A stretch of 64,000 nt of DNA, from the NCBI GenBank assembly GCA_018063165.1, contig JAGOQU010000005.1:1674-65673 (forward strand), in the 5' to 3' direction. The notes beneath the pieces were generated by a model. That model made no database searches and was not told where the DNA came from. It was given only the letters and a program-made list of their open reading frames with translations. The translations under genes and the position numbers were made by a program. Positions 17,231 through 61,754 of this stretch are shown here, one piece after another. Source of the DNA: Minisyncoccota bacterium (lineage in GTDB: Bacteria; Patescibacteriota; Minisyncoccia; Phycocordibacterales; UBA5272). Position 1 is the first letter of the stretch; the number at the start of each line of letters is the position of its first letter.

Positions 17231-17289
17231 AAAAGAGAATAGGTTACAAAAGCACTAGCTTCGTTCAAGAAGCTTTCGAGACCCCAGTT

Positions 17290-45646: not shown

Positions 45647-45810
45647 AGGATAAATAAAAAAAATCACAAGATAATCTTGTAATTGTTTTTTCTGCGGTGA
45701 ATATGGGTTAAGTACCCACACTCTCAAGTGTTATAAGGGTATTTTAGCACACTTTTGGTATGTAAAACTAGGATAGTGGGTCGGGGTGTAAATGCCAACA
45801 AATGCCAATT

Positions 45811-46413
45811 TTAACTAGAGCTATCTTTTTTATAATGTATGGCAAATAGATAAAGAATACTCGATACTGTAATTATTATTGATAGTATTATATTTAAAAT
45901 AGATAGACCAAAATAACTAGAACTATATGTTTTTATTTCTAATACTGTTTTAGTTATTACGATTAATATTAATCCTAAAGGAAATACCCATGTATAAAGT
46001 ATCCATGTCCAGTTTGAGAATTTTGGATATCTATCTAAGTATCCGGCACCCTCTCTTTTAAAAATATCACCACCAATTTCTTTATCTATTAATGGCTCTA
46101 AGGAATGTATATAGCTATATTGGCGTTCAATTTGGATACAAATCTGAAAATACCTTATACTAATAATAGTAAGTAGACCCCATGTCAAACTAAGAAATCC
46201 AGAAAAGCTTATATTAAAACTAGATCCAAATTTATATTCTATCGCTTTACTGATGGCATTAATAGCTTGATCTGGAGAATAAAACTGTATACTAAATAGT
46301 GTTAAAATTAGAAGTATATAAATTATAAGTTTCTCTCTTTTATTTTCTAAATCCTTATTATTTAAACAAGTCTCCTTGTAATGATCGTAAAGTATTTCTA
46401 TTTCTTTTTTCAT
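45811..46413 (-). CDS. 4-TM membrane protein (candidate effector of the TIR operon)
   Basis: ~27-aa cytoplasmic N-terminus then four hydrophobic helices. Start codon 2 nt after the stop of the TIR-like gene. Confidence 0.5.
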   Translation of the reverse strand: MKKEIEILYDHYKETCLNNKDLENKREKLIIYILLILTLFSIQFYSPDQAINAISKAIEYKFGSSFNISFSGFLSLTWGLLTIISIRYFQICIQIERQYSYIHSLEPLIDKEIGGDIFKREGAGYLDRYPKFSNWTWILYTWVFPLGLILIVITKTVLEIKTYSSSYFGLSILNIILSIIITVSSILYLFAIHYKKDSSS

Positions 46414-46415
46414 GT

Positions 46416-46850
46416 TTAAAAAATAAAAGGCGCTTGATTTATTGCATTAATTATATTCTGATGGGTAAAGGAATTAGCTGTAGAGTATTTTGCACCAACA
46501 AGCGTTGTGGGTATTTGTGATAAAAAATTTATTTTAATTACCGCAATCCTCTTTTTATAAGACACAGCTTGATATGATTCAAAGTTAATCCAATTAACAT
46601 GACCTATTAAACTTCTATTTCTGTGCGGAGTGTTTGTATGCCCACCTGAAATAACTAGGACATGAGTAGACTCTTTTATCTTATTAGTTAGTGCTGCTTT
46701 TATTCTTCCTATATTGTTAGAATTTATTTCCTCTGAGGAGTAATCGTCAAATACTAAATCAAATTCCTTATTAGCATTCCAAGCTTCTAATAAAAACTTA
46801 TAATGCTTATCATGTTCGTAGTCAAAACTTACAAATATCTTTGGCTTCAT
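46416..46850 (-). CDS. TIR-like domain protein (ThsB/DUF1863-like)
   Basis: KIFVSFDYEHDKHYKFLLEAW...HVLVISGGHT...RSLIGHVNWINFESYQAVSYKKRIAVIKI parallels the ThsB pattern (FxSFxYxD...W...vLIg....R.WV.yEi.....IIgI.I). Confidence 0.55.
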   Translation of the reverse strand: MKPKIFVSFDYEHDKHYKFLLEAWNANKEFDLVFDDYSSEEINSNNIGRIKAALTNKIKESTHVLVISGGHTNTPHRNRSLIGHVNWINFESYQAVSYKKRIAVIKINFLSQIPTTLVGAKYSTANSFTHQNIINAINQAPFIF

Positions 46851-46853
46851 ATA

Positions 46854-47480
46854 TTACTTTAAATTAGGTTTTTTAATAACATCTACAACCTTTCCATTTA
46901 TGAGAAATTGATCATCCTCATGAATATAAATAGGGCTGTAAAATTTTGTAGACTCTGGCATTAAAAGTATTTGGTTATTATTTTTTCTGTCATCTACATA
47001 TTTTTTTATTGTCCCTCCTCCGTTTATAACAGCGAGAACAATTTCTCCATCTTTTGGATTAACTTGAGTTTTATCTACAAGTACAAAATCTCCATCTTCT
47101 ATTTTTTTATCAGTACCATACACAACTGCTTTGTTCATAGAATCTCCTTCAGCTCTTACTGCAAAAATATTTTTTACATTTTTTATTTTATGTAAAAAGC
47201 TTTTTGATACAACAACAAAACCTTCGTAATTTTGTTCTGCAAAAACAGAAGCATCTCCGCAATCAGCAGTACCAACTAATGGTATTTGGACAAACAGATC
47301 AGAAGGCTTACTTTTTTTATATACATCAAACCCTTTTTTCACTAATTGCTCTATATGGTGCTTAATTTTCTGTGGTGAGCTATTTTTTTCTCCTATTTTT
47401 TCAGCAATCTCCCTTAAGGTTAGTTTACTAAGGTCTGCAGACTTAGAAAGAGTTAAAATATCGTTTTGTATTTTGTGCAT
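46854..47480 (-). CDS. LexA/CI-like repressor (HTH + S24 peptidase)
   Basis: N-terminal wHTH (LTLREIAEKIG), C-terminal S24 with catalytic Ser in GDSM and Lys in TIKKY. 208 aa. Confidence 0.75.
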   Translation of the reverse strand: MHKIQNDILTLSKSADLSKLTLREIAEKIGEKNSSPQKIKHHIEQLVKKGFDVYKKSKPSDLFVQIPLVGTADCGDASVFAEQNYEGFVVVSKSFLHKIKNVKNIFAVRAEGDSMNKAVVYGTDKKIEDGDFVLVDKTQVNPKDGEIVLAVINGGGTIKKYVDDRKNNNQILLMPESTKFYSPIYIHEDDQFLINGKVVDVIKKPNLK

Positions 47481-47762
47481 ATGTGTAGATTATAGCAAAA
47501 ATATTATATTTTTGTCAATCTATTTTAGGTATTATATCTTAACAAAACTTAATTCTTGACAATGAAAATTCATTTTGTTAAAATAGAAGTAATGTACAGA
47601 AACTATTCTTACAGATTATTAAATAAACAAGCTTAAACTTATGGCAAAACAACGTGACTGGAAAAAAGAGCAACCTCATAAAGCAAATAATGGACAAATA
47701 GCTTCTAGAGAATATGCTAAAAAACATCCAGAAAAAGTTACTTGGGTTAAAGTAGACTAAAT

Positions 47763-48179
47763 ATGAAAACAGTAAATATCGCAATGGCTCATAAAGTAAT
47801 TCACCCACCTAAACATGGGGATATTATTTTACAAGTAACAGATATTCAAGCTCATACTAGTTTATTTAGAACATCCGACTTTGCAAAAACTGTTGAAAAA
47901 TCAACAAAAAAGAAAGAAGGAGGTAGGCTATTCTCTACTTTTAGTAGAGAAACTAATCAGATAATATCTGTTTTTGAAGATGGTGTTATAAAAAGCACAC
48001 TACCTTATTTAGATCAAACTCAACTGACTTCTCTAGTTAAAAAATACGAACAAGAAGGAAAAAGAGTTTATCTATCAATTCCTAATGGGTTAACTCTAAC
48101 ACCAGGAAAAGATGCTGTTGAATTCATGAACAGTAAAAATGGAAAAAGACTCGTAAGAGGGATGAATAAAAACAATTAA
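47763..48179 (+). CDS. hypothetical protein
   Basis: 138 aa. First of a co-directional series of small genes. Confidence 0.4.
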   Translation: MKTVNIAMAHKVIHPPKHGDIILQVTDIQAHTSLFRTSDFAKTVEKSTKKKEGGRLFSTFSRETNQIISVFEDGVIKSTLPYLDQTQLTSLVKKYEQEGKRVYLSIPNGLTLTPGKDAVEFMNSKNGKRLVRGMNKNN

Positions 48180-48333
48180 ATACTAATTACTCTGCGTAGT
48201 AAAAAGTAGAATAGTGTATCGCCTAAGAAACCATGCCTATTCCGCGCAAGAAACAGAAGGAACTTCGAATTCTCTTGTTTCGTGTGTGGAATAGGCTTTT
48301 TCTTATTCCACATATTAATTAAACAAAATTAAT

Positions 48334-49638
48334 ATGGCTAAAAAAATACAACAAAAACTAACATGGTCACTCACTACACGCAAAGTAAATGACCTCACAA
48401 AAAACGGATACAATCCGAGAAAGATAAGCGAGAATGAAAAAAGAGATTTAGAAAACTCTGTTAAAGAGTTTGGTACGGTTGTACCTGTAATTCTAAACAT
48501 CGGTAAAAGAAATAACATTATTATTGGTGGTGAGCAAAGAGTTAAAGTCTATGCTGACCTCGGTATAGAAAGTATTGAGTGCATGACTCCTTCTCGGGAA
48601 CTTACTCTTACAGAAGAAAAGGAATTAAATCTAAGGCTCAATAAAAATACTGGATCTTGGGATGAAAACCTCTTGAAAGATTTTGATATAGACATGCTTT
48701 TAGATGTTGGTTTTGGAGATGAGGAATTACAAAGCATGTTTGATGATGTAAACATGATCGAAGATGATTATGATATAGAAAAAGCAGTAAAAGAAACTAT
48801 TACTCCCAAAGTAAAACTTGGCGAGATTTGGGAACTTGGAAAACATAGGCTACTCGTGGGAGATTCAACTGATCTTGCTTCTGTACAAAAACTAATGGAT
48901 GGGAATTTAGCAGATATCATTTACTGTGACCCGCCATATAATATTGGACTCGACTACTCTAAGGGTGTGGGAAATACAGAAAAGTATGGAGGGTCATATT
49001 CTGCAAAAGATGATTCAAAGACCAAAAAAGAATATGAAGCTTTCATAGATACAAGTATGGAAGTAGCCAAGTCTATTGCTAAAAAAGATAGCCACTTTTT
49101 CTATTGGGGAGATTCTTCATTTATTGGAATGCTCCAATCTCTCTACCTAAAACATAAAGTAGATAGTAAAAGGGTTTGCATGTGGATTAAGAATAATCAA
49201 AACCCAACTCATAAAATTGCATTCAACAAAGTCTATGAGCCTTGTGTATATGGCACTCTTGGTAAACCCTATCTTAATTCTTCGATGAATAACACCAATG
49301 AAATACTTAATCAAGAAGTAACTACCGGCAATCAAGTTCATGATGAAATACTCGACATGATAGATATATGGATTGAAAAAAGAGACAGTGCTCAAACTTA
49401 TCAACATCCGACACAGAAGCCAGTTACTCTAAACGAAAAGCCATTCAAGAGATGCAGTGCTCCACTTCATGTTATTTATAGTGGTTTTGGTGGTAGTGGT
49501 TCTGATCTCATTGCCTGCGAGCAACTAAATAGAGTTTGGCGTGGGGTCGAAAAAGATTTGGTATTTGCTACCGTGATTATAGATAGATGGGAAAAGTTTA
49601 CAGGACTTAAAGCAATGAGAATATATGAAAGTAAATAA
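48334..49638 (+). CDS. ParB-like nuclease domain fused to DNA methyltransferase (N6-adenine/N4-cytosine, DPPY type)
   Basis: N-terminal ParBc-like segment (KISENEKRDLENSVKEFGTVVPVILNIG...IIGGEQRV), then IIYCDPPYNIGLDY and C-terminal SGFGGSGSDLIACEQLNR AdoMet motif. Confidence 0.8.
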   Translation: MAKKIQQKLTWSLTTRKVNDLTKNGYNPRKISENEKRDLENSVKEFGTVVPVILNIGKRNNIIIGGEQRVKVYADLGIESIECMTPSRELTLTEEKELNLRLNKNTGSWDENLLKDFDIDMLLDVGFGDEELQSMFDDVNMIEDDYDIEKAVKETITPKVKLGEIWELGKHRLLVGDSTDLASVQKLMDGNLADIIYCDPPYNIGLDYSKGVGNTEKYGGSYSAKDDSKTKKEYEAFIDTSMEVAKSIAKKDSHFFYWGDSSFIGMLQSLYLKHKVDSKRVCMWIKNNQNPTHKIAFNKVYEPCVYGTLGKPYLNSSMNNTNEILNQEVTTGNQVHDEILDMIDIWIEKRDSAQTYQHPTQKPVTLNEKPFKRCSAPLHVIYSGFGGSGSDLIACEQLNRVWRGVEKDLVFATVIIDRWEKFTGLKAMRIYESK

Positions 49639-50377
49639 AGGAGATATATTCACAATTGGTAATCACACTGTGGGGTGTGGCGACTCTACGGATAGAGAGT
49701 TTGTCAGTAAAGTTATTGGGAAAAATAAGATACGAGCAATAGTTACAGACCCTCCATATGGTGTTGCGTATGTAGAAAATAAAAAAGACTTTTTAAAACT
49801 TGGAGTGAAAGATGAAAAGAAAATTGCAGGAGATCATATACAATCGGACTCTGAATATACTGACTTTACTCAAAAGTATTTAGGAGCAGTGGTTCCGTAT
49901 CTAGAGGATTATAATGCTTGCTATATATTCAATGCTGACCTCATGTATCCGTCACTTAGAGTTGGTATGACTAACAGGGGATTCTATTATAGTCAGATGC
50001 TCATTTGGGTTAAAAATCAACCAGTCATGAGTCGTAAAGATTATTTATCTCAATATGAACTCATTGCATATGGATGGTTTGGAAAGCATAAAACAGAAAG
50101 GTCTAAGTCAAAGAACGTCATATACCACCCAAGACCAAATAAATCTAAACTGCATCCAACTCAAAAACCGATAGGTTTACTTCGTAGACTTATCCCAGAC
50201 AATACTGTTATTGGTGACATGGTCTATGATCCATTTCTAGGAAGTGGTTCAACCGCTATTGCTTGTGAACACTTAGGTCGAAAATGTATTGGTATAGAGC
50301 TCGACGTTAAGTATGTAGAAATAATACTACAAAGACTTGAAAAGCTTACTGGCGAAAAAGCCATAAAGAGTAATTAA
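49625..50377 (+). CDS. DNA methyltransferase (orphan, DPPY type)
   Basis: IVTDPPYGVAYV, HPTQKPIGLLRRLI, DPFLGSGSTAIACEHLGRKCIGIELD. Confidence 0.8.
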   Translation: MKVNKGDIFTIGNHTVGCGDSTDREFVSKVIGKNKIRAIVTDPPYGVAYVENKKDFLKLGVKDEKKIAGDHIQSDSEYTDFTQKYLGAVVPYLEDYNACYIFNADLMYPSLRVGMTNRGFYYSQMLIWVKNQPVMSRKDYLSQYELIAYGWFGKHKTERSKSKNVIYHPRPNKSKLHPTQKPIGLLRRLIPDNTVIGDMVYDPFLGSGSTAIACEHLGRKCIGIELDVKYVEIILQRLEKLTGEKAIKSN

Positions 50378-50381
50378 AAAT

Positions 50382-50756
50382 ATGAAGGAAGAAGAATTCA
50401 TAAAAGATCCATACAAGAAACAAACATATGAAAGCTATGCTCTTTGGAAGTCCCTTCCTTCATTTTTAAAGGGTCAACCAAGAGTAAGTCTTGAAAAGTT
50501 TGGTATCAACGAAGAAATAATCTTTGATTTACTTGCAATCAAAACTCAAGCTGAGTTTTCTAAAACATACAGCATTGATGTTGGTACGCTCACGGACTGG
50601 AATAAGAGGTTGGAAAAGGATGGGCTCAGTAAAGACATCAATGCGTGGGCAAGAAAGCTAACTCCTAATGTCATTTTTGCACTGTACAAAAACATTACTA
50701 AAAATGGTCGTGCTCACGAGGTGCGAGCTTGGTATGAATTAATTGAAAACAACTAA
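50382..50756 (+). CDS. hypothetical protein
   Basis: 124 aa. Confidence 0.4.
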   Translation: MKEEEFIKDPYKKQTYESYALWKSLPSFLKGQPRVSLEKFGINEEIIFDLLAIKTQAEFSKTYSIDVGTLTDWNKRLEKDGLSKDINAWARKLTPNVIFALYKNITKNGRAHEVRAWYELIENN

Positions 50757-50952
50757 TATGAAAGATATTAACTTAGAAGAAATAAATACAATACTATCTG
50801 ACACGTTAAGAAAAGTAGTAGATAGAGATATCTCACATAAGCAAGCGACGATGATTGCAAAACTAGCCTCTACACTTTCTAAAAATATAGTGAGTGTAGA
50901 ACTAAAAGACAGAGTCGAATTACTAGAACAAACTCTCAAAAGAAGAAAATAA
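50743..50952 (+). CDS. hypothetical small protein
   Basis: 69 aa, overlaps the neighbour by 14 nt. Confidence 0.3.
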   Translation: MKTTNMKDINLEEINTILSDTLRKVVDRDISHKQATMIAKLASTLSKNIVSVELKDRVELLEQTLKRRK

Positions 50953-50955
50953 TAT

Positions 50956-51948
50956 ATGCAAAAATTATCAAACATTTTAGGGTCTGGAAACATGACCCCA
51001 AAAGAAAGAATACTGGCTCAAGTCAAGCATTATCTACACCTTGAAAGAACAGGAGCAGAAATACTCTCTGAGTCTGATATTTATGCTTTGAGTCAAGGAT
51101 GGAAGCCAAAAACTCAAGCTGAGGTTAATGAATACAATAAATATCTAGATGGCATGAAGACGGAAAATTTAATGAAGGTAGATATACAGTTTGAGTATCT
51201 ACAAGCTCAGTTAAAGTTAGCCAGAGTATCACGCGTCCTTGATTATGCTATGTTTAGTGGGTATAAAAACATCAAAGCTCATGATATTTTATTGTCCGAC
51301 GGTTTGGTTTCAGAAGAAGAGATAACAGACTTTTTGCTAGAAAATAGTGGTTTCAACTATGACAGTATTGTAGTAGAATACCCTAAATTTAAAAGCGAAC
51401 TAGATACTCTTATAAAACAAAATAAACTCATCATCTACACTTTTGAAGACCAAATCCTAGACATGAAGCGAACGGTAAGTTTAATTACTGGAGAAAGTAT
51501 AATGTCTCTACCTCACACACACATTCTTAAGACTGAGTACAAGAAACAGTTGGAATACTATAAATATTTTGCTAATGTTTTTCTGTTTATACAAAAGTCG
51601 CAGTTATTTAAAATTTATGGCGAGATACTAGCACTGCAAGATATATATAAAGTTCTGCTTGAACTTTATGACGCAGATATAGGCTATTATCTATCTGACT
51701 TATTGAGTGAATTAGATGAATCAATACACCAGCTAAATATGGAAGTGGTGTATTTCTTATCTAGAATGGAGGATGAGCTTTATGATAAACATAAGCCCAA
51801 ATTCTTTTTAGATATTCAGATAAGAAAAGTCCTATTTGAAAAACCAATCAGAGAATATACTGGAAATATTTATAGAAAATACATTGAGCAATTTAGAGAG
51901 CTTTTTGATTATGAGTTTAGAGAAAAAAGCAATACTTTATTGCATTAG
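50956..51948 (+). CDS. hypothetical protein
   Basis: 330 aa, no family recognised. Confidence 0.4.
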   Translation: MQKLSNILGSGNMTPKERILAQVKHYLHLERTGAEILSESDIYALSQGWKPKTQAEVNEYNKYLDGMKTENLMKVDIQFEYLQAQLKLARVSRVLDYAMFSGYKNIKAHDILLSDGLVSEEEITDFLLENSGFNYDSIVVEYPKFKSELDTLIKQNKLIIYTFEDQILDMKRTVSLITGESIMSLPHTHILKTEYKKQLEYYKYFANVFLFIQKSQLFKIYGEILALQDIYKVLLELYDADIGYYLSDLLSELDESIHQLNMEVVYFLSRMEDELYDKHKPKFFLDIQIRKVLFEKPIREYTGNIYRKYIEQFRELFDYEFREKSNTLLH

Positions 51949-52067
51949 AAGGACTAATGTAGCCCCCAAAGTATTGACTTAATATACAAAGTATGCTATG
52001 ATGTATTAAGCTGTAAACTACAGCTACTGACCAAGCAGATTCTTGGTGTTCTTTTAAAAAGGAAAAG

Positions 52068-52925
52068 ATGATGACTGAAAAGATCACGTCGAATCAACGT
52101 AAACAAATCGTTCGATTCGTGGAGGATGGCATTGATGCCGTGAACCTTCAAAAAGACGGCGCACAGCGCCTTATCGAAAACGGAGGAGAATTCCAAAGCG
52201 AGCTGAAAAAGCTTGTTGAACGTTTCTCCATTACCAACCAGTACGCGGACGAAGAAGTGAAATCCAGCTACGGCTACCTGTCGGGCTACACGCCCAAGGG
52301 TATCACCGAGCAGACCAACTTACTCCGCGCCCTGTTCCCTGGTATCGGCTACGCCAACGAAAAGCTTGCCGAAGCTGGTCTGCCCGAAAACGCCGAAGGA
52401 TGGTTCGCCATTCCGCGGTGGGAAAAGGTTGCCCCGACTTATGGCGAAGCGGTGCAGAAGGTGCTCGATCTGATCAAGCAAACCAGAAACGGTGCGTTCT
52501 ACAACTACCGTGAAGGTCAACTTGGTCCGAACCAGCTCCGTCAGTCCGCGAAAGCAAAGTCAATGTTCCAAATGCTCGGTGGCGAGCAAAAAGATCAGGA
52601 CATTCTGGTGGTACCTGCCCAATTCGGTATCCGTCATCGCGGTCGCTCGGTTCGCCGTGCCCGCGCGCTAATGAACGCAAACGAATGCGGTCTGGGTGCA
52701 TTTGCCATCGGCATCATGCTCCTGACTCATCCTGAGCGTCTTCAGCACTTTGATGATCTCTGGATTGACTCCGCTGGTGACGAGTTTGCTCCGCATGCCG
52801 ATGGTGACTTCTCGAGGTCTCCGTACTTCAGGTTCTTTGACGACGAGGTCGAGTTCGACACCAACGATGTTTTCATTGCTTACGCCTACTATGGTTCGGC
52901 TTCGGTGTGTCTTCCGCAAGGTTGA
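52068..52925 (+). CDS. DGR target protein (variable region at C-terminus)
   Basis: 285-aa ORF, markedly GC-rich versus flanks. Last ~45 codons form the VR matching the downstream TR with adenine-specific mismatches. Confidence 0.7.
   Translation: MMTEKITSNQRKQIVRFVEDGIDAVNLQKDGAQRLIENGGEFQSELKKLVERFSITNQYADEEVKSSYGYLSGYTPKGITEQTNLLRALFPGIGYANEKLAEAGLPENAEGWFAIPRWEKVAPTYGEAVQKVLDLIKQTRNGAFYNYREGQLGPNQLRQSAKAKSMFQMLGGEQKDQDILVVPAQFGIRHRGRSVRRARALMNANECGLGAFAIGIMLLTHPERLQHFDDLWIDSAGDEFAPHADGDFSRSPYFRFFDDEVEFDTNDVFIAYAYYGSASVCLPQG
52784..52921 (+). repeat. DGR variable repeat (VR)
   Basis: Aligned by hand to 53289-53426 at a constant offset of 505 bp. Confidence 0.7.
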
Positions 52926-52984
52926 TACTTGTTCTTTGGGATCTTGAGTCTTTTGATTTTTTGATCCTTGAATCCTTGAGTGGG

Positions 52985-53012
52985 TTTGCGAAAGCAAACC
53001 CACTTTTTTTAT
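52985..53012 (+). terminator. terminator after DGR target gene
   Basis: gtgggtttgc-gaaa-gcaaacccac followed by tttttttatt. Confidence 0.7.
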
Positions 53013-53288
53013 TTGCCGAAGGCAATTTTTGTATTTTTATGGTAAAATAAGTTTGAGTCTAGGTTAGTGTATAGTAGTTTACGGATTACTATCACCGAAC
53101 TCTTTCTCCTATGAGAAATCACAATCAGCATCACAAAGACCAAGGTTTCTGTGACAGTGTTGTTGCTCTAGAGATACTGCTTACTATTTTCTAAGACAAA
53201 CAAGTAATTGTGTTGTTGGATTAAATACAGAATCGTGATTTATGTGCAATATCATACTTCGTGGTTTGTGGTCTGGATGGAAAATAGT

Positions 53289-53426
53289 AAAAGCTCCGAA
53301 TGCCGATGGTGACTTCTCGAAGTCTCCGTACTTCAAGTTCAATGACGACAAGGTCAAGTTCGACACCAACGATGTTGACAATGCTAACGACAACTATGGT
53401 TCGGCTTCGGTGTGTCTTCCGAAGTA
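53289..53426 (+). repeat. DGR template repeat (TR)
   Basis: Non-coding copy of the VR. 13 of 14 mismatches are A in this copy versus C/G/T in the VR. Followed by hairpin ggtatcc-atatcg-gatacc at 53440-53468. Confidence 0.7.
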
Positions 53427-53472
53427 TCAATTAAGCACAAAAGGTATCCATATCGGATACCTTTTGCTTTAT

Positions 53473-53817
53473 TTACTTTTGGAACTTTATCCACCCACCA
53501 AGCATACGACCAATTTCATCAATGATTCCTTGGAGAAGTGTGTACTTCTTTAGATCGAGACTTCTACTTTCTTTCATAAGACGAATAAAAAACCTTATGA
53601 TATTAAGTTTTACACTCGTCTTTTCTAGAAGAATTATTTTTCTTTCTTTTGAAACATAACTTGCTTCAAGAACTAATTCAAGGATATCTATAATTATATT
53701 TTCTGTACGCTCGTAAACAGAGAATCTGTCTTGTTTTGGAACCAGATTTCTGTACTCATGAAATGTTTTGTACAACTCATGAATCTTACGAAGTATTGGC
53801 ACATCATTATCATTCAT
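53473..53817 (-). CDS. avd: Avd-like accessory variability determinant (four-helix-bundle family)
   Basis: 114-aa helical ORF ending IDEIGRMLGGWIKFQK. Lies between TR and RT. Opposite strand to the RT is atypical. Confidence 0.5.
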   Translation of the reverse strand: MNDNDVPILRKIHELYKTFHEYRNLVPKQDRFSVYERTENIIIDILELVLEASYVSKERKIILLEKTSVKLNIIRFFIRLMKESRSLDLKKYTLLQGIIDEIGRMLGGWIKFQK

Positions 53818-54873
53818 ATGAGAATATATACTAATTTATTTAATAAACTTGTTACTCCAGAAAACCTATTTTCTGCATGGGAGGATTTTCGACGTGATAA
53901 AAAAAAGAAAGTAGATGTACTTATTTTTGAGAAAAATCTCGAGCAAGAAATATTCTCTATTCACAGAGAATTGACTTCTGACACTTACAAGCACAGTGGC
54001 TATACTTCTTTTTATCTTTCAGATCCGAAACGTCGACATATACACAAAGCCTTAGTTCGTGACCGAGTACTTCATCATGCGATTATGGGTATTTTGTATC
54101 CTTTGTACGACAAAACCTTTATTCATAATTCTTTTTCTTGTCGTGTTGGGAAAGGAACTCATAAAGGTGTTGATGCACTACGATCCATGCTTTACAAAGC
54201 AAGTAAAAATAATACAAGAAATGTGTATATTTTAAAGTGCGATATAGAGAAGTTTTTTGATTCTATTTCTCACGAGATCTTGCTTGACGCTCTTCACTCA
54301 CGAATCAAAGATCAAAAACTTATGGACTTACTCACTGAAGTAATCGGAAGCTTTTCGAGTTATAAGTCTAATCTTTTCGGATTGTGCGGTGTACCTATTG
54401 GTAATTTAACCTCTCAATTATTCGCTAATGTTTACATGGATATTTTTGATCAGTTCATGAAACATGAACTTAAAGTAAAATATTATGCACGGTATACCGA
54501 TGATTTTGTAATAGTTAGTGAGAATAAAGAATATCTAATAGACTTATTACCCAAAATACAATTGTTTTTAAATGAGAAGTTAAAGTTACAGACACATCCC
54601 AAGAAAATTATCCTAACAAAGTTCGCACTAGGCATTGATTATCTTGGATATGTTTTGTTCCCACACTTCACTTTAGTTCGTAAACTCACTCAAAAATGTG
54701 CTTTTAGAAAAATAAACGAAAAGATATCTTTGTGCAAGCAACAAGAGATTTCAAAAGATAAAGTACATGCAACCTTAATGTCTTATCTTGGTGTTTTATC
54801 TCATGCAGATACTTATAAAGTATCTAATAAATTAAAGAATGATTATTTCTTTAATATGAGTAACATTGACTAA
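53818..54873 (+). CDS. DGR reverse transcriptase
   Basis: Start inferred at MRIYTNLFNKLVTPENLFSAWEDF. RT motifs include GVPIGNLTSQLFANVYM (DGR-type [I/L]GxxxSQ) and YARYTDDFVIV (YxDD). No maturase/endonuclease domain. Confidence 0.8.
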   Translation: MRIYTNLFNKLVTPENLFSAWEDFRRDKKKKVDVLIFEKNLEQEIFSIHRELTSDTYKHSGYTSFYLSDPKRRHIHKALVRDRVLHHAIMGILYPLYDKTFIHNSFSCRVGKGTHKGVDALRSMLYKASKNNTRNVYILKCDIEKFFDSISHEILLDALHSRIKDQKLMDLLTEVIGSFSSYKSNLFGLCGVPIGNLTSQLFANVYMDIFDQFMKHELKVKYYARYTDDFVIVSENKEYLIDLLPKIQLFLNEKLKLQTHPKKIILTKFALGIDYLGYVLFPHFTLVRKLTQKCAFRKINEKISLCKQQEISKDKVHATLMSYLGVLSHADTYKVSNKLKNDYFFNMSNID

Positions 54874-54893
54874 AAAAGTTCGACCGGGCTTCT

Positions 54894-57239
54894 TTAGTCA
54901 TTCATGTTTTCAAGACTTTTCCCAAGCGATTCTAATTTCTCTATATCTTTTATTAGATGCCACTCACCAGTTTTAAATATAACAACTCCACCAAATAGTT
55001 TCTGTGCTTTTCGTGTTTTATTTTCTTTCTTTACATATTCTTGCAAGGCTTCATTTTTTGCTTTTGTATACGTATCTTTATCTCTGTCGTTCTCATCTTT
55101 TGTTTCAAAAATACCAATTCTTCCATCAGAAAGCTCAACAATATAGTCAGGATAGAAAGTGTGTACTTCTGATTGATATTCGTATCTGATACCAAAATAG
55201 TCCCTCCTCATTTCACCATTTTTATACCACCAATTTACAGCAATAAGTAATTCAAGATACTTTTCAAACTCTTGCTCTGGTTTAGATCTAGTTTTTGAAA
55301 GATAGCAAGGTTGTAAAACACATTTTGCATAGTTTTTTTCTTCGTCTACTTCTTTATTAAAGTAGTCTTTTTCTATTATTTCAAAACCTGTAATAACATG
55401 TTCGGTCTCTTCTTTTGCTTTCTTTGCACGAACCAAGGAGTATGTCTGTACTGCATCTAAAAAGATAGGTTTAATTTTATCTTTATTTAAAATGAGAAAT
55501 GCTTGAGAGCTAAGTGTTCCATTATTTATTATCTCATCACCAAAGAGTTCACGGCATACTAAAAACCAAGCAGTATTCATAGACGGTACCGAACGAGCGA
55601 TGTTAGTAAATGGAGCCATCATACTTTTAAAGAGACTGCGTGAAATAAATTCAATCTGGCGCTCATTTATTTTAAGAGACTGCACATCGCCGTCATCGTC
55701 TTCGAAAACATTTTTATAATTGTCTACCTCTGTAACATCAAGAGACAGATCCTTTATAACTGTATGTAGTATCTCTTCAGTACCAAATTGCCATCCTAAA
55801 TCAGATGTAGTTGTAGGTTTTACTTTTTTGAGTTTACTTATATTATTTTTATACTCACCCTGAACAAGACCAAGTTTAGTAGATATGGTTTCTAACAAAA
55901 CTTTCCGAAAGTCAGCTTTAATATCTTGGTAATCGGCACGTTCTCTATAAAAAGATGTTAAGTTTATCGGGTTATACGACGGCAGTCTCTTTGCAGGCTG
56001 ATCACCCAGTATCTTTGGGCTGTAACTTTCAATGTCAAAACTCGCACTACTTGTATTGGTGTATACATAAGCTTTATTAAGAGCTTCTACTTCATAGTGT
56101 TTTTGCTCAGGCATACGAAGTATTCTTCCTAATACTTGTATATTAAATACTTCACTTTCACTTTCTCTAAATTTAAGTAGTATCTGTGCACGAGGGCAAT
56201 CCCAGCCAGTATCAATTGCTTGTTTAAAAAGTAAGTATTCTTGTGGGGCGGTATTGTCGGATATTTTATCCAAATTCCTATCTATTTTATTTTCATCGTC
56301 TAACCATACTGACAACTTGTCATCACCCAAAGAGACACCTCTAGTATTTTTAAGTTGTTCTAAAACAACAGACTTTACCACTTCACCATTTGCGCTGTTG
56401 GGTAGCTGTATAAGAAGTAAAGGATTTACATCTATATTATTTTCTTTATACAGCCTAGCGAGTTCATCTCTTTTATTGATTGCAGTACGAAGTATCGCTT
56501 CGTCACTATCGTCTGTATCTTTAAAATCAAAATCAAAGTTAACGAGAATTTGATCTTTTATCATTTGTTCGTCAATAACATCTTGAGGTTTAATTTTTTC
56601 TATCCAACCATTACCTGCAATTACATCTTCTGCTGACAAAATCAATTTCGGAGTTGCTGATACCTCTATCGTGACAGTCGGATTTATGAGATGAATTATA
56701 TCTTCGGCAATCTTTGTCTTTGTATTGCTGTGAGCTTCGTCAATAATGAGAATTATTTTTCTATGAATACTGGTGGTGTTTAAAAGTATTTCCCTAAAGT
56801 TAGTTTGTTCACCATCTTTCATAATAATGTTTTTCCACTCCTGTGTCTTACCATCTTTCGAACGTATCTTTTCCCAGTTTACAACCATAACTGAGTCTTT
56901 TAAAAGTTCATATTGTGAAGTACCAAAAACACCATCTACACTTTGAACTATAGGGAATCCATCAAATACTCTTTCAAGACTTCTCCTGCTTTGATTGTGT
57001 AGATCTCCTTTACCGATAGAGAGCCATACAAAAGTAAAATCAAGAGAGCTTTCACTTTCTTTATTTTTGTTTATCAGTGACTCTATAAAACTTGCCACCA
57101 TAATAGTCTTACCTGATCCAGTAGGAGCTTGGAGAACAGCGGTCTTTTTGTGGTCATTATTACTGTCTAAAAAGAGTGACACTTTTTCAGTAAGCGTATC
57201 GACAGCTTTTTGTTGATAGTCTTTTAAAATTATTTTCAT
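54894..57239 (-). CDS. res: type III restriction enzyme Res subunit
   Basis: SF2 helicase motifs VLQAPTGSGKTIM (I) and LIIDEAHS (II). Follows a Mod gene. Start inferred at MKIILKDYQQ. Confidence 0.8.
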   Translation of the reverse strand: MKIILKDYQQKAVDTLTEKVSLFLDSNNDHKKTAVLQAPTGSGKTIMVASFIESLINKNKESESSLDFTFVWLSIGKGDLHNQSRRSLERVFDGFPIVQSVDGVFGTSQYELLKDSVMVVNWEKIRSKDGKTQEWKNIIMKDGEQTNFREILLNTTSIHRKIILIIDEAHSNTKTKIAEDIIHLINPTVTIEVSATPKLILSAEDVIAGNGWIEKIKPQDVIDEQMIKDQILVNFDFDFKDTDDSDEAILRTAINKRDELARLYKENNIDVNPLLLIQLPNSANGEVVKSVVLEQLKNTRGVSLGDDKLSVWLDDENKIDRNLDKISDNTAPQEYLLFKQAIDTGWDCPRAQILLKFRESESEVFNIQVLGRILRMPEQKHYEVEALNKAYVYTNTSSASFDIESYSPKILGDQPAKRLPSYNPINLTSFYRERADYQDIKADFRKVLLETISTKLGLVQGEYKNNISKLKKVKPTTTSDLGWQFGTEEILHTVIKDLSLDVTEVDNYKNVFEDDDGDVQSLKINERQIEFISRSLFKSMMAPFTNIARSVPSMNTAWFLVCRELFGDEIINNGTLSSQAFLILNKDKIKPIFLDAVQTYSLVRAKKAKEETEHVITGFEIIEKDYFNKEVDEEKNYAKCVLQPCYLSKTRSKPEQEFEKYLELLIAVNWWYKNGEMRRDYFGIRYEYQSEVHTFYPDYIVELSDGRIGIFETKDENDRDKDTYTKAKNEALQEYVKKENKTRKAQKLFGGVVIFKTGEWHLIKDIEKLESLGKSLENMND

Positions 57240-57249
57240 AGTGTTTTTG

Positions 57250-58986
57250 TTATCTGCGATTATTTCGCTTATAAATAGTTTCGTATATTTCAAGTATTTT
57301 TTCTGGTACTTCTTCGATATGTATTCCTTTCCATTTACGATAGTCATCTATAAAATCAGAGACACTTCGAAGAGAGAAAATATAGGCAGTCTTGTGTGAA
57401 TCTTCATATTGTTTTAACTCACTTCGCATATCTTCGAGATAACTATCATCAAGATCATAATACACACCCATATAATGTTTTACGGTAGTACTGTCGCCCT
57501 CTTGAGATATAACCTTTATTCCGCTATAAATACGATACATGAGAGTGTCGCCATCTTTTACTTCTTTTTCTAGATTAAAAGTATTCTCCTTAAGACAAAG
57601 CATTTCACTACAGGCTCGCATGAGTCTCATTTTCATATTGTCACTATGGCGAGTCTTGTCTATGTATTCGCATTTTAAATACTCCAAATTACCACCAAAA
57701 CCCTCGATGTTTTCTCCTTTTTTGTTTGTGTAGCCTTTAATCACTCTCTTGAGTCTTTCATAGGTTACTTCTTCACAAATATTATTCTCATTATTAGTAC
57801 AGAGAATATATTGGCGATTACCGCCATCCTCTTTATTTAATTCCATAACAGCATGGCCAGTTGTACCAGAGCCTGCCATGAAGTCTAAGACTACGGAGTT
57901 TTTATCTTGATGAAAATCTACTAAGTCTTTAATTAACAAGTATGGCTTTGAGTAATTAAAAACTTTTGATTTAAAAATATTTTCGAGTTGCTTGGTAGCC
58001 ATTGTACTGGAATAACTTGATATGACAGCTATTGGAGTTTTTGAACGTTCTATCAAATTTCCCTCATTATCACAGTTAAAATATTGCTTGGTATATACAT
58101 TACCATTCTTAAAAACTATAAAATCATTTTCTAATCCCCATAAAAATTTATTTTCAGACCACCTCCAACACCCCTTCTTCCCATCTTCTGAAGGCATTTT
58201 AGTTTCTCCATTTGGCAGAATGATTGGATAGTCAAGGCTTTTAGAATACTGAATACTAAAACTATTCAACTTAATCAACTTGTATCTTCCTCGTATTTCT
58301 AAATAGTTGTCTTCAAAAGTATAACCATTATCATTTTCTATTTTTAAATTTTTTATAACAACTAAATCTTTTTTCAAACCATAAACCAAAATGTATTCAT
58401 GTTTAATCTTGAAATGTGCACTATCAGATCCGCCACCTCCTTCTTTATTTTCCCATATTAAATTTGCTATAAAATTATGTTCCCCGAGTATTGAGTCACA
58501 CAAAAGTTTTAATTGTGCCTGCTCATTATCATCAATAGATATAAAAATTGCACCACTATCTTTTAGTAGGTCTTTTGCAAGTCTTAGTCTCTTCTCTATA
58601 AAAGACAACCACTTAGAATGTCTAAAGCTATCCTCTCTATCTACATAATCATCATTATATATAAAGTCTTTATTCCCAGTATTGTATGGCGGATCAATAT
58701 AGATGACATCAATCTTACCCTTATGGGTATAATTCAAAACAGAAAGAGCGTGATAATTGTCTCCCTCAATCAATAAGTTCGTTGGGCGAGTATTATCTGT
58801 AACGATTTTTCTATTTTTAATTTCTTTAAGCACTGGAATTTGCTTTTCACATTGAAGTACCACATCCTCTGGTTTATCTTCCCAGACGAGTCCATATTTT
58901 TTACGAGACTTGAGTTTTTTCATTTCTTCCTCAAGTTCTTTGATGCGAGCAAAAAGCTCTTGTTGTGAGTTTGTGTTTGATGACAT
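57250..58986 (-). CDS. mod: type III R-M Mod subunit (N6-adenine DNA methyltransferase)
   Basis: LIEGDNYHALSVL, IDVIYIDPPYNTG, C-terminal FMAGSGTTGHAV. Confidence 0.85.
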   Translation of the reverse strand: MSSNTNSQQELFARIKELEEEMKKLKSRKKYGLVWEDKPEDVVLQCEKQIPVLKEIKNRKIVTDNTRPTNLLIEGDNYHALSVLNYTHKGKIDVIYIDPPYNTGNKDFIYNDDYVDREDSFRHSKWLSFIEKRLRLAKDLLKDSGAIFISIDDNEQAQLKLLCDSILGEHNFIANLIWENKEGGGGSDSAHFKIKHEYILVYGLKKDLVVIKNLKIENDNGYTFEDNYLEIRGRYKLIKLNSFSIQYSKSLDYPIILPNGETKMPSEDGKKGCWRWSENKFLWGLENDFIVFKNGNVYTKQYFNCDNEGNLIERSKTPIAVISSYSSTMATKQLENIFKSKVFNYSKPYLLIKDLVDFHQDKNSVVLDFMAGSGTTGHAVMELNKEDGGNRQYILCTNNENNICEEVTYERLKRVIKGYTNKKGENIEGFGGNLEYLKCEYIDKTRHSDNMKMRLMRACSEMLCLKENTFNLEKEVKDGDTLMYRIYSGIKVISQEGDSTTVKHYMGVYYDLDDSYLEDMRSELKQYEDSHKTAYIFSLRSVSDFIDDYRKWKGIHIEEVPEKILEIYETIYKRNNRR

Positions 58987-59283
58987 AGGGTAGACGTCTA
59001 TGCCTCAGCTTAAAACCAAAAATGGGTAGCCGAGTGTCTACCCATAACTAGAGTCGCAAGGAGTCCAATCATGGAACTCAGCTACCCGTTTCTGTCCACG
59101 ATTGGATACAGAAAAACAGATAGCCTTGCGACTTTTTAAAAACTAATTATGGGTAGACTGTTACATAATAGCATAAAAACGGCTTTTTATGAAGGGTTTA
59201 GGGACTACTTATCAACTTATAAGGACAAAAGAACGCCTAGACTTCCTATGTGGTTTGCGTCATTAATGTGTATATAAAAACAT
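58987..59283. promoter_or_regulatory. cluster of inverted/direct repeats upstream of the serine recombinase gene (candidate recombination site)
   Basis: gggtagac / gtctaccc motifs at about 58989, 59024-59046, 59080, 59150. Inverted repeat gagtcgcaagg...ccttgcgactt at about 59050 and 59120. Confidence 0.35.
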
Positions 59284-60612
59284 ATGAAAATAGATGCACC
59301 AAAAGGATATGAAGTACCTATAACACTTCAAACAAAAGAAGTTAAAGCAAGATATTGTTTGTATGCAAGAAAATCAACAGAGTCAGAAGAAAGACAAGTA
59401 CTTTCAATTGATTCGCAAATTAAAGAAATGCTCGAGCTTGCAGAAAGAGAAGGTCTTGAAATAGTTGCTATGAAGCGAGAGTCCCACTCAGCAAAAGAAC
59501 AAGGACAGCGTCCTGTATTTAATGAAATAGTCGATGAAATCAAAGCTAAGAAATATAATGCAATACTCACATGGGCACCAGATCGTATTAGTAGAAATGC
59601 GGGAGATCTCGGAAAGATAGTAGACCTCATGGATGCGGGACTGCTTCATGAAATACGCACCTATGGGCAAAAGTTTTCAAACAACCCTAATGAGAAGTTC
59701 TTGCTGATGATACTGGGCTCACAAGCAAAGCTAGAAAATGATAACAGAGGTGTGAATGTGAAGCGTGGACTTCGCACAAGAGCTGAGATGGGACTATGGG
59801 CAGGTACAGCACCACTCGGATATTTAAATCAAAGACATATGGATAGAAAGTGCCAAGTAGTCATAGATCCTGATAGAGCTCCTGTAGTAAAGAAAATGTT
59901 TGAGAAAGTAGCATACGAAAAATGGTCGGGAAGAAAGGTGTACAATTGGCTTCGTTTTGAAGCCAATTTTTATACGAGAGGCAATAAGCCTCTTACACTA
60001 AGCGGTGTCTACAGAGTGCTCACTCACAGCTTTTATTATGGAGTTTTTGAAAGACCTAAAAATAGCGGCAACTGGTATCAAGGTAAACATGAGCCGATTA
60101 TAACAAAAGAGTTATTTGATCAAGTACAAGCACAACTGAAGCGAGATAATATACAGAGAGAAAATAAAGAATTTGCTTTCACTAAACTATTTACTTGTGG
60201 ATATTGTGGTAGCGGTATATCGGCAGAAGAAAAGTGGAAAGATTTAAAAGATGGTACACATGCAAAATACATATACTACTCCTGTAGTAGGGCGAGGGAT
60301 AGAAACTGTAAGAATAAATATATTAGAGAAGAAGAATTGATTGGGGAACTACTCAAAATGCTAGACAAGGTAGATATTAACGAGCTTGGCATGAGACAAA
60401 AGCTCGAGGAAGAAATAGCAAGATTTAATATATTCCAAAGATCAGTGTTACAAACGACAGTAAAGTCAGACAAAGATCATGTCACTGATATTCGTAACTA
60501 TGCGAAGTATATTCTTAAGGAAGGTACAGTGATGGAAAAGCGTGAGTTACTTGCTAATTTAAGGAGCAGGATTGTGTATAAGGATAAGGAGTTAAAATTA
60601 AACAATTGCTAA
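59284..60612 (+). CDS. large serine recombinase
   Basis: N-terminal resolvase domain with catalytic Ser in YARKSTESEERQVLSIDSQ, recombinase domain, C-terminal zinc ribbon CGYCGSGISAEE...YYSCS. 442 aa. Confidence 0.9.
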   Translation: MKIDAPKGYEVPITLQTKEVKARYCLYARKSTESEERQVLSIDSQIKEMLELAEREGLEIVAMKRESHSAKEQGQRPVFNEIVDEIKAKKYNAILTWAPDRISRNAGDLGKIVDLMDAGLLHEIRTYGQKFSNNPNEKFLLMILGSQAKLENDNRGVNVKRGLRTRAEMGLWAGTAPLGYLNQRHMDRKCQVVIDPDRAPVVKKMFEKVAYEKWSGRKVYNWLRFEANFYTRGNKPLTLSGVYRVLTHSFYYGVFERPKNSGNWYQGKHEPIITKELFDQVQAQLKRDNIQRENKEFAFTKLFTCGYCGSGISAEEKWKDLKDGTHAKYIYYSCSRARDRNCKNKYIREEELIGELLKMLDKVDINELGMRQKLEEEIARFNIFQRSVLQTTVKSDKDHVTDIRNYAKYILKEGTVMEKRELLANLRSRIVYKDKELKLNNC

Positions 60613-61418
60613 TCAAAAACTTTAGACAACATAGCGCTAAAATCAGGGTTTGTTTTTGGATTTGGTATAGCAACTATCCCATAACCAATAGAACTACCAT
60701 CTTTTTTACTTCTTCTAACTTTATTTCTTAGATATTGTGAGTAAATGTCTGTGGAGGTTTTATATTCTCTTAGTGTCCCACTTATTGCACCGATAATAAA
60801 ATCTGCAATCTGGATACCAATATTTAAATTTGAAAATTCAATAAAGAGGTTATCAACAATGAGATTGTAATCTTTTATAAAGGAATCACTGTTAATTATT
60901 TCTTTGTAAACTTCTTTTTTAATTTTATCATCCTTAGATGAATTTTCGTTTTCATGGACAAGAATTGTTACAAAATGATTTTCCTGCCCAGCGAACTGAC
61001 ACCTCTGCATAAGATTTTGGAGTTGCATTTTTACAAAAGAATCTTGTCTTTTAATTACTTTTATTAAATCGCTTTTTCTTGAGACATTAGTAACTATTTT
61101 TATATCAAAATCAGAAATAATTTTAAAAAATGAATCTAGATACTCATGCAATTCTTTAATGCTAAATTTATCAAGGTAAAGAATGTCCTCATTAAGAGCT
61201 TTATTTTTATTTTTTAAAAAAATTGCAGATGAAATATGAGACCACTTTATTTCTTTTGTTTCTTTAAGAAAATCAAGATTAAGTTTCTTTATTTTCTTAT
61301 TTAGTTTTAAATAGTCATGAATATCAATCATGTAACCTCCTCTCAGTAACCACTCGTGATCATTGTTAAGTGTTCCTTGTTCATCTATAAAGAAAAATTT
61401 GGTTGTGTTATTTATCAT
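60609..61418 (-). CDS. DUF3800-like protein
   Basis: N-terminal FFIDEQGTL (DUF3800 starts with a similar I/YxDESG). 269 aa. Confidence 0.45.
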   Translation of the reverse strand: MINNTTKFFFIDEQGTLNNDHEWLLRGGYMIDIHDYLKLNKKIKKLNLDFLKETKEIKWSHISSAIFLKNKNKALNEDILYLDKFSIKELHEYLDSFFKIISDFDIKIVTNVSRKSDLIKVIKRQDSFVKMQLQNLMQRCQFAGQENHFVTILVHENENSSKDDKIKKEVYKEIINSDSFIKDYNLIVDNLFIEFSNLNIGIQIADFIIGAISGTLREYKTSTDIYSQYLRNKVRRSKKDGSSIGYGIVAIPNPKTNPDFSAMLSKVFD

Positions 61419-61542
61419 AAAGACATTTTACTCTTTCTAAAACAAAACACACGAAGCGTCGTGTGTTTTGCGATAACTTATGTACTCGGATCGCTACCAT
61501 CTCGTGAGAATATGGGAACACTCCGATACTAAGTTGTCAAGG

Positions 61543-61630
61543 CGGAGACGATGAGATTCGAACTCATGAGGGTATTACTACCCTGCCTCGTTAGCAGTGA
61601 GGTGCCTTCGACCAGCTCAGCCACGTCTCC
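61543..61630 (-). tRNA. tRNA-Ser(GCT)
   Basis: Reverse complement GGAGACGTGGCTGAGCTGGTCGAAGGCACCTCACTGCTAACGAGG + long variable arm CAGGGTAGTAATACCCTCATG + AGTTCGAATCTCATCGTCTCC. Confidence 0.75.
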
Positions 61631-61699
61631 ATTCTGTTATTTTTTCTACCGACAATTATTCGTACACGTTTTTATAGTTGTGACGACCAGACTCGCATC

Positions 61700-61754
61700 C
61701 TAAAACTGCTGTTTTCGGATATCTTCGAAGCCAAGCTTCTCGAGCCACGTCTCC
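61700..61754 (-). repeat. partial copy of the tRNA-Ser 5' end linked to conserved motif
   Basis: Minus-strand read GGAGACGTGGCTCGAGAAGCTTGGCTTCGAAGATATCCGAAAACAGCAG. The first 13 nt equal the tRNA-Ser 5' end. The remainder parallels the 139-bp repeat units at 19749-20026. Confidence 0.5.

Follow-up and report, generated by a model that had tools for sequence, protein, structure and literature searches.

We analyzed a 64,000-nt stretch of DNA from a Minisyncoccota bacterium (contig JAGOQU010000005.1 of assembly GCA_018063165.1; this whole stretch is the window, to whose positions all coordinates refer) and found that positions 45691-61545 are very probably a site-specific integrative element of 15,855 bp (15.86 kb), inserted by a serine recombinase at the acceptor stem of a tRNA-Ser gene. 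This 15.9-kb block is a member of a large family in the Candidate Phyla Radiation (CPR) that bears anti-phage defense genes and a diversity-generating retroelement (DGR). The family is apparently undescribed: we found no description of it in the literature searched, the coverage of which was incomplete, so an earlier description is possible. An initial annotation of the window had proposed an accessory block ending at tRNA-Ser, with the serine recombinase on its tRNA-proximal side, and both proposals stand. Its boundaries (45700 and 61640) were close to the actual ends, 45691 and 61545.

At the left, twelve ends (from metagenome contigs and the tail of a GenBank contig) share ~55 nt that start directly after GCGG, and upstream of this GCGG the DNA is unrelated between loci. 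In the window, the identity of the left ends begins exactly past the GCGG at 45687-45690, the crossover region of attL; the left junction reads ttttttctGCGG followed directly by TGAATATGGGTTAAGTACCCAC. The conserved left end itself (P' arm, 45691-45749, plus strand, TGAATATGGGTTAAGTACCCAC...TAAGGGTATTTTAGCAC) recurs as blocks 85-95% identical in eleven loci (L031, L033/34, L075, L073, L027, L024, L076, L061, L037, L028, and L137; L-numbers are labels of the compared contigs and loci). At the right, ~100 nt (P arm, 61438-61541) with a minus-strand hairpin and T run (~61443-61470) and the motif GGGAACACTCCGATACTAAGTTGTCAA are 76-94% identical in L019, L020, L022, L136, and L137. The right-end motif, ...GGGAACACTCCGATA(c/a)TAAGTTGTCAA, abuts the GGCGG of a tRNA-Ser gene; most of the eleven aligned right ends read ...CCGATA(c/a)TAAgttgtcaa, then GGCGG, then tRNA-Ser, with the motif weaker in the most distant. 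The right GCGG (61542-61545, crossover region of attR) is defined by this alignment and by contig JAGONQ010000013, which diverges after 61545. It lies inside the 3' acceptor end of tRNA-Ser(GCT) (61541-61630, minus strand), the integration target, which faces the block with its 3' end, stays intact, and is outside the element. The right junction reads gttgtcaagGCGG followed by agacgatgag, the tRNA 3' end. Searches of Rfam returned no family at the two ends and, over the whole window, tRNAs alone.

The junction between island and tRNA is confirmed by three independent contigs (L002, L010, and L011). GenBank assembly GCA_017992935.1 carries identical DNA: its contig JAGONQ010000006 ends at window position 46322, and its contig JAGONQ010000013 (L001) is 100% identical over 46321-61545 and then has a 316-bp tail that is not tRNA. 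Over its first 56 bp, this tail matches 45694-45749, which lies shortly past the 286-aa gene flanking the element, with 84% identity. L001 thus holds, at 12263-12578, a second, 84%-similar left end, and the contigs of this assembly meet at 46321/46322, where the assembly graph probably hides two element variants sharing everything rightward of 46321.

The integrase of the element is a large serine recombinase (LSR; 59284-60612, plus strand, 442 aa) with the domains Resolvase (PF00239, 4e-19), Recombinase (PF07508, 2e-14), and Zn_ribbon_recom (PF13408, 7e-10); given these three domains and the YARKS motif at residues 27-31, it looks intact. In the mechanism we propose, the LSR would recombine attP, in which the right end runs into the left end (...GATACTAAGttgtcaagGCGGtgaatatgggTTAAGTACC...), with the terminal bases of the tRNA-Ser acceptor stem. 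The host site would be GCGG followed by AGAC... on the plus strand of the window, and we infer that the exchange occurs within GCGG. Integration would leave the tRNA intact, bring a new hairpin and T run ~70 nt downstream of it, and push the chromosomal terminator to the far end of the element. The right-end hairpin folds at -18 kcal/mol, lies ~70 nt downstream of the tRNA, and is kept across most of the family. At the other end, a chromosomal hairpin and T/A run (45657-45686; minus-strand fold of -10.3 kcal/mol, then U8) is presumed to have been the terminator that the 286-aa gene and tRNA-Ser originally had in common. This B arm of attL now lies 15.9 kb away from the tRNA. A comparable hairpin directly follows the tRNA-Ser 3' end in the sister species L017 and L018, which is the arrangement predicted for the empty site of the window. 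A simple terminator scan called neither hairpin, and both rest on folding and conservation.

The initial annotation reported no exact direct repeat of the tRNA-Ser at the left end. This proved correct, and a check for short repeats gave GCGG at both ends. An exact repeat was therefore rejected; the left end shares with the tRNA GCGG alone, plus a weak ungapped resemblance (~60%) to the 3' part of the tRNA, which we take for half-site similarity and not for a relocated piece of the tRNA. Integration by large serine recombinases creates only a very short core common to both ends. Hence, with GCGG as the core, the missing direct repeat is no weakness, and the ends are hybrid att sites with a very short core and no long direct repeats.

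We found attP-type junctions in several members of the family. In L137, whose LSR is 96% identical, one 10.8-kb contig has the attP configuration: its right end (89.9% identical to window 61461-61548) passes through GGCGG directly into its left end (89.6% identical to 45694-45817). The left end is also preceded by right-end-like sequence in L076, L033/34, L028, and the JAGONQ010000013 tail. Each such right-to-left GCGG junction marks either a circular form or elements arrayed head to tail. One IMG/VR contig (L109/L110) holds two recombinase genes (71% and 70% identical) with the left-end motif and a complete backbone between them, and we read it as two elements in tandem.

The family was delimited with a metagenome scan that used the ParB-methylase of the element and gave 79 loci, onto which the window proteins were mapped. 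The element consists of a fixed backbone and three exchangeable cargo slots. The backbone, all on the plus strand, comprises a ParB_N::N6_N4 methylase fusion (the ParB-methylase, 48334-49638) and a second N6_N4 methylase (49625-50377), both recognized by Pfam and PHROGs, and the orphans p124 (50382-50756, 124 aa), p64 (50758-50952, 64 aa), and p330 (50956-51948, ~330 aa). Backbone loci keep this order, with a p330-like protein whose N-terminus is conserved, and the LSR follows 5-9 kb downstream on most contigs long enough. In ~40 related loci, amino acid identity is 64-85% for the ParB-methylase and 59-83% for the second methylase. The backbone, the ~55-nt left end, and the ~100-nt right end are common to dozens of metagenome contigs; flanks and cargo vary. 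The cargo of relatives includes a DGR or none, Type III or Type I restriction-modification (R-M), a 1355-aa protein, HamA/HamB, PemK, and an FAD oxidoreductase, and so takes in restriction systems as well as candidate anti-phage systems. In the window, the left slot holds a TIR-domain gene and a membrane protein gene, the middle slot the DGR and then Type III R-M, and the right slot a DUF3800 gene. Other members have Type I R-M or other genes in the slot upstream of the recombinase, and in the slot downstream of it, L019 has HamA/HamB, L137 has the FAD oxidoreductase, and L022 has no gene.

Homologs of the LSR number >8000, the best 120 of which are 81-100% identical; their sources are labeled Pacebacteria, Parcubacteria, Colwellbacteria, and Nomurabacteria, labels of metagenome-assembled genomes (MAGs) that are unreliable as taxonomy. 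Recombinases at least 70% identical adjoin tRNA-Ser on every contig that reaches a tRNA. The anticodon is GCT in the window and L022, TGA in L019, L029, L044, L102, L103, and L108, GGA in L136 (LSR 99% identical in amino acids), and ACT in L110. More distant LSRs (44-64% identical) lie beside tRNA-Asp, Glu, or Gln. Hence, what the recombinase recognizes appears to be the 3' end that tRNA-Ser genes have in common, with specificity shifting as the recombinase diverges. Among the distant cases, five IMG/VR contigs (L112, L121, L126, L130, and L132) have LSRs 45-64% identical beside tRNA-Asp/Glu/Gln, which suggests a wider recombinase clade in which each subgroup targets a different tRNA 3' end. 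Separately, ARAGORN called a tRNA-Ser with anticodon ACT (A34) near tRNA-Ser(GCT) in three unrelated CPR contigs (L017 1-88, L022 11613-11700, and L110 15923-16010); this anticodon is unusual in bacteria, and the calls may be a real isoacceptor or a miscall.

A one-genome-per-species scan with a tRNA-Ser 41-mer gave three MAGs labeled Saccharibacteria. All three keep the right flank (tRNA-Ser, MscL, p178, and tRNA-Glu) and have differing DNA on the 3' side of the tRNA, and the island is present in 0/3. The block is thus horizontally acquired and is not a conserved core of relatives, the case in which its accessory character would have fallen: the three closest species, with the same right flank, lack it.

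The same site carries other DNA in related contigs. L006 is 99.9% identical across the 286-aa gene and diverges right past the stop codon (45646); at 1090-3203 it has a gene for a 508-aa membrane protein directly after the 286-aa gene, then a hairpin, GCGG, and a diverged left-end-like sequence. Judged by this sequence, L006 carries a different element at the same site. In L018 (3630-3812), a terminator comes after the intact tRNA-Ser; beyond ~143 bp of filler, the final 19 nt of the tRNA occur again, together with a homolog of the right-end motif. This arrangement looks like the scar of an older insertion at this site. Short GC-rich hairpin repeats (...TCGCGACC / GGTCGCAAG...) occur in an intergenic region of the window (17240-17410) and beside tRNA-Ser in L018 (3705-3801) and L017 (1590-1660), with 78% identity, and may be a small family of palindromic repeats.

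On the other side of the tRNA, the partial 5' copy reported at 61741-61754 is real; it lies outside the element and is conserved in a sister species. A tRNA-Ser-like pseudo-gene (61660-61754) stands just upstream of tRNA-Ser, and 12 bases of its 5' end (AGCCACGTCTCC) repeat the 5' end of the tRNA. By eye, its first ~37 nt are conserved in L018 (3443-3530), and BLAST aligns pseudo-gene and tRNA over 215 bp at 81% identity. Relative to L017, an insertion of ~120 bp seems to separate two copies of this 5' end in the window. The pseudo-gene is not part of the island.

Composition gave a divided answer. The whole window has ~33% G+C and includes type IV pilus genes, an ABC transporter, and six tRNAs. 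Tetranucleotide usage differs (distance of 0.17-0.21 for island windows vs 0.10-0.13 for background 8-kb windows), with a rough control in which the background windows are themselves part of the reference. G+C does not differ from the host (0.342 for the island vs 0.334) and was rejected as a marker of foreign origin.

This lack of a G+C difference is one of several points that weigh against a mobile element of the kind described. A same-species empty site was not found: exact-protein look-ups of both flanking genes gave only contigs with the island junction and, from other samples, contigs that end within the tRNA or depart from the window at 45646. Terminal overlap is absent from every contig checked, so a free circle is not shown. 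The JAGONQ010000013 junction joins the right end of the element to a left end just 84% identical, which fits a tandem or recombinant better than a simple excised circle. The reconstructed attP, GATACTAAG-N8-GCGG-N10-TTAAGTACC, has outer motifs that are approximate reverse complements and center on the final GG, and this dyad is imperfect and was judged by eye, without statistics. L135 has the same backbone with a recombinase 72% identical in DNA over the first ~690 bases and unaligned beyond, and does not have these ends. Hence, backbone and recombinase can be reshuffled. Finally, we identified in the element neither a recombination directionality factor, for which p64 and p124 are candidates by position only, nor a replication gene or a transfer function.

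To determine family content, we scanned called genes of at least 64 aa with Pfam. PHROGs was added for the ten from p200 (a 200-aa membrane protein at the left edge) to the DGR target, and NCBIfam for those left unannotated. Between the ends, these scans gave no terminase, portal, capsid, tail, lysis, relaxase, secretion, primase, or replication-initiator family, in agreement with the earlier report of no capsid, terminase, or tail genes. The element therefore does not classify as a prophage, which would have terminase, portal, capsid, and tail genes, nor as conjugative or mobilizable, with no relaxase, type IV coupling protein, or type IV secretion system family in the Pfam scans. The label phage-like holds for single genes, as temperate phages encode proteins ~30% identical to the S24 repressor and to the ParB-methylase (the ParB-methylase, searched against phages only, has distant relatives alone). 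It does not hold for the element: p124 is not encoded by any deposited phage or plasmid, and among the matches listed the LSR is at most ~28% (about 25-28%) identical to phage integrases. IMG/VR contigs with related LSRs have Type I R-M, AAA/SMC ATPases, and helicases upstream of the LSR and no virion genes. When the genes at 47763-51948 were compared with phage protein families, as had been proposed, the methylases matched; p124 and the 138-aa open reading frame (ORF) had no phage-family match.

A phage satellite, like the phage-inducible chromosomal islands (PICI), would be packaged in the capsids of a helper phage, with p124, p64, or p330 redirecting packaging. Like satellites, the element combines an integrase and a CI/LexA-like switch with a lack of structural genes; its ~16 kb is a typical satellite size, and relatives are filed as viral in IMG/VR. 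In addition, p124 has a terS-like position, since the ParB-methylase of the Streptococcus temperate phage Javan100 (the one context examined) lies upstream of terS-terL-portal. However, p124 has no similarity to a terminase small subunit and was rejected as one (hhalign probability 0.3%, Foldseek against the PDB E > 3, no PHROG or Pfam match). Moreover, no primase or replication gene, capsid-remodeling gene, or cos or pac site was recognized, there is no known helper phage, and p124 is in no deposited phage. We consider a satellite unlikely. That the block is a degraded prophage, with structural genes lost or elsewhere, is very improbable. Although the repressor, the ParB-methylase, and the DGR are common in temperate phages and the window has no capsid or terminase, both att ends are present and enclose just 15.9 kb, and attP-type junctions indicate current activity. 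The same order of intact ORFs recurs at 60-95% amino acid identity in ~40 independent contigs, none with structural genes between the ends; because of this conservation, the element is not a decaying remnant. Among the options of the initial annotation, a satellite or defense island came nearest the mark. A degraded prophage, or structural genes elsewhere, found no support, as both ends are now known and this compact layout, free of structural genes, is seen again, intact and highly conserved, in dozens of contexts.

The block could also be a composite of two units, a mobile module of R-M, recombinase, and cargo beside a separate ParB-methylase backbone element. L135, with a backbone of 87-90% DNA identity and a different recombinase and flank, fits this, as do L102, L106, and L108, in which recombinase and R-M have no backbone within 10 kb upstream. 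We nonetheless hold a composite to be improbable: the conserved left end is always on the backbone side and the right end on the recombinase side, both ends are found joined together (L137, L076, and L028) as for one element, and a BLAST search with both ends turned up no end motif flanked by GCGG inside the element, in the interval from 50 to 59 kb. As for a static defense island, in which other processes brought the genes to a tRNA hot spot and the recombinase is a passenger, the 3' side of tRNA-Ser is indeed variable in all four related genomes, and small remnants flanked by tRNA 3'-end repeats exist (L018). However, ends and recombinase are conserved as a set even where the tRNA-Ser gene and the flanks differ, and recombinase clades track tRNA type, so this account is hardly credible. 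Integration of a single element by its own recombinase is the reading we prefer.

This integrative element resembles several known systems. Staphylococcal cassette chromosome (SCC) elements (SCCmec; CcrA/B/C) are likewise large-serine-recombinase islands at the 3' end of a housekeeping gene, with modular cargo that includes R-M and no self-transfer or capsid genes. SCC elements are also found arrayed in tandem or as composites. In NCBIfam, our LSR matches CcrB best, at 126 bits vs a cut-off of 900. Our element is not an SCC: its recombinase is not a Ccr, its target is tRNA-Ser and not rlmH, its backbone and host (CPR) are unrelated, and it has a repressor switch.

Tycheposons of Prochlorococcus and other marine bacteria are also small integrative elements at tRNA genes, including tRNA-Ser(TGA), with cargo modules, tandem junctions, and subpopulation heterogeneity. 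Most have tyrosine recombinases, with a large serine recombinase in 27/937 elements, and many have primase, helicase, or polymerase genes (10.1101/2020.12.28.424599). In contrast, we found no replication genes and no shared backbone gene, and the cargo is defense and a DGR vs nutrient uptake. The tRNA-proximal position, tandems, and cargo modules are a functional analogy only. Hence, with CcrB at 126 vs 900 bits, no replication module, and an unrelated backbone, the element belongs to neither SCC nor tycheposons. Serine-integrase temperate phages (phiC31, Bxb1, A118, and TP901-1) and PICI/SaPI satellites share with it a large serine recombinase, short-core att sites, and a CI/LexA-like repressor with divergent promoters, and Streptococcus prophages share the ParB-methylase. 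Unlike the phages, it has no morphogenesis or lysis genes between its ends, and its LSR is ~25-28% identical to the phage integrases listed. Unlike the satellites, which its integrase and repressor recall, it has no terS, primase, replication-initiator, or capsid-redirecting gene that we could find, and p124 is unlike terS.

The DGR occupies the middle cargo slot. Its target gene (52068-52925, plus strand) encodes a 285-aa protein with no obvious signal peptide and no Pfam or NCBIfam domain, and a C-terminal variable repeat (VR, 52788-52916, plus strand) repeats the template repeat (TR, 53293-53421, plus strand). Then come a reverse-strand avd (53473-53817; bAvd, 7.6e-17) and the reverse transcriptase (RT; 53818-54873, plus strand; RVT_1, 1.3e-24). 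We found 13 differences between TR and VR, of which 12/13 are at TR adenines and 13/13 at codon positions 1 or 2. The TRs of L019, L030, and L121 are 97.7-98.4% identical to that of the window, and their VRs are 77-88% identical, differing at positions of TR adenines; between the window and L030 VRs, 13/16 differences fall on TR adenines. Hence, DGR diversification has operated in this lineage, and the DGR would diversify the C-terminus of the 285-aa protein. In L019 (2850-3703), a tblastn map places the target gene in four reading-frame pieces, with a VR (3570-3697) one base shorter than that of the window; this gene may have been damaged by DGR activity.

In every family DGR compared, the reverse-strand avd lies between TR and RT. 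With its RT and adenine-specific TR/VR, the cassette has architecture B3, TR-(avd)-RT, reported for 90% of CPR DGRs, so the antisense avd was rejected as a novelty (Wu et al. 2018, PMC5758913). The likeness to CPR-type B3 DGRs extends to the upstream target with its C-terminal VR and to the adenine changes at codon positions 1/2, and the cassette shows no difference from them. What is added here is the genomic vehicle, where there was 'essentially no information' on the linkage of CPR DGRs to phages or mobile elements (PMC5758913).

We tentatively suggest a broader view of these elements. They may be a distinct class, very abundant in CPR and neither viral nor conjugative, in which the recombinase reads the shared tRNA-Ser 3' end and the orphan core of p124, p64, and p330, without detectable homologs outside the family, serves as a new maintenance or mobilization function. 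Such a class might be a main vehicle for DGRs and anti-phage systems among Patescibacteria and might spread by host natural competence or a helper. The CPR/Patescibacteria are a large share of bacterial diversity, and gene movement among them is little known. One CPR-type DGR lineage, along with R-M, Hachiman-like, TIR, and toxin-antitoxin genes, is now placed on a sharply bounded and widespread integrative element. The element also provides a natural recombinase with a reconstructed attP and attB, the latter being a conserved tRNA-Ser end in every genome, so recombinase and sites are a testable candidate tool for DNA insertion in hard-to-manipulate bacteria. The two end motifs, p124, and the recombinase form a marker set for finding defense islands in CPR genomes.

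For the orphans, we found 246 homologs of p124, all unnamed and all from CPR-labeled sources, and 15 homologs of p330. AlphaFold2 models had a pLDDT of 71 (p124) and 86.6 (p330), and Foldseek at E <= 0.001 gave no match for p124 and p330 in the PDB, nor for p330 in BFVD. The two methylases upstream of them would protect incoming element DNA from restriction.

Every gene type listed in the initial annotation was recovered with Pfam, PHROGs, PADLOC, and NCBIfam, and two features were added to that list. One is a ThsB-like TIR-domain gene, defense-type cargo of the left slot (46416-46850, minus strand; Pfam ThsB_TIR 5.5e-09, PADLOC ThsB1 2.8e-10, phrog_6988 6e-26). It is followed by the gene of p200 (45811-46413, minus strand), cargo as well and the last gene of the S24-TIR operon; by eye, the C-terminal half of p200 is hydrophobic. 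This pair does not make a Thoeris system, because p200 matches no ThsA model of PADLOC; it also has no match in Pfam, PHROGs, PADLOC as a whole, or NCBIfam. By eye only, with no alignment run, p200 resembles the C-terminus of an ORF in the JAGONQ010000013 tail.

The other addition is a pair of divergent promoters, back to back (47489-47584) with near-consensus -35/-10 pairs, between the repressor gene and the rightward operon. The minus promoter (47518-47489) is TTGACA-18-TATAAT (12/12, with TG) and the plus promoter (47556-47584) TTGACA-17-TAAAAT (11/12, with TG); together they are a possible lysogeny-type switch. The S24/LexA-CI-like repressor (46854-47480, minus strand) matches Peptidase_S24 (1.3e-19), phrog_4 'transcriptional repressor' (4e-24), and NCBIfam lexA (4e-20, under the model cut-off). 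It holds GDSM and a downstream KK lysine pair and, on these residues, is probably self-cleaving. Because of the GDSM/lysine pair and the divergent promoters, damage-inducible control is suggested, in which the repressor and promoters would probably keep the rightward operon silent until DNA damage induces it as part of an SOS response. The operon starts with a 39-aa ORF (47641-47760, plus strand) and a 138-aa ORF (47763-48179, plus strand), both gene calls; they have no family match in Pfam, PHROGs, or NCBIfam and are conserved in L135 (42 and 138 aa) and in L023 (90%).

In the slot upstream of the recombinase, adjacent res (54894-57239, minus strand; PADLOC REase_III 1.5e-24) and mod (57250-58986, minus strand; PADLOC MTase_III 2.9e-104), both also found by Pfam, constitute a Type III R-M system. 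The slot downstream of the recombinase holds the DUF3800 gene (60609-61418, minus strand; Pfam).

The inverted-repeat array reported at 58987-59283 is real, and its core is a nested element of ~125 nt (59036-59158) in the intergenic region from the start of mod to the start of the recombinase gene. Its fold z is -6.3 on the plus strand and -8.7 on the minus strand, where it folds at -70 kcal/mol. It has no Rfam match, is missing from relatives without this R-M system, and is replaced in L135 by unrelated hairpin-rich sequence. In L019/L021 it is nearly invariant although the adjoining recombinase DNA is ~82% identical. The three sequences compared for covariation are nearly identical, without informative variation.

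Outside the element, a gene for a ComF-like protein (42558-43205), with a double zinc ribbon and a phosphoribosyltransferase domain, lies beside the type IV pilus genes. The ComF-like gene and the pilus genes fit a natural-competence apparatus of the host, which bears on the entry of the element into cells.

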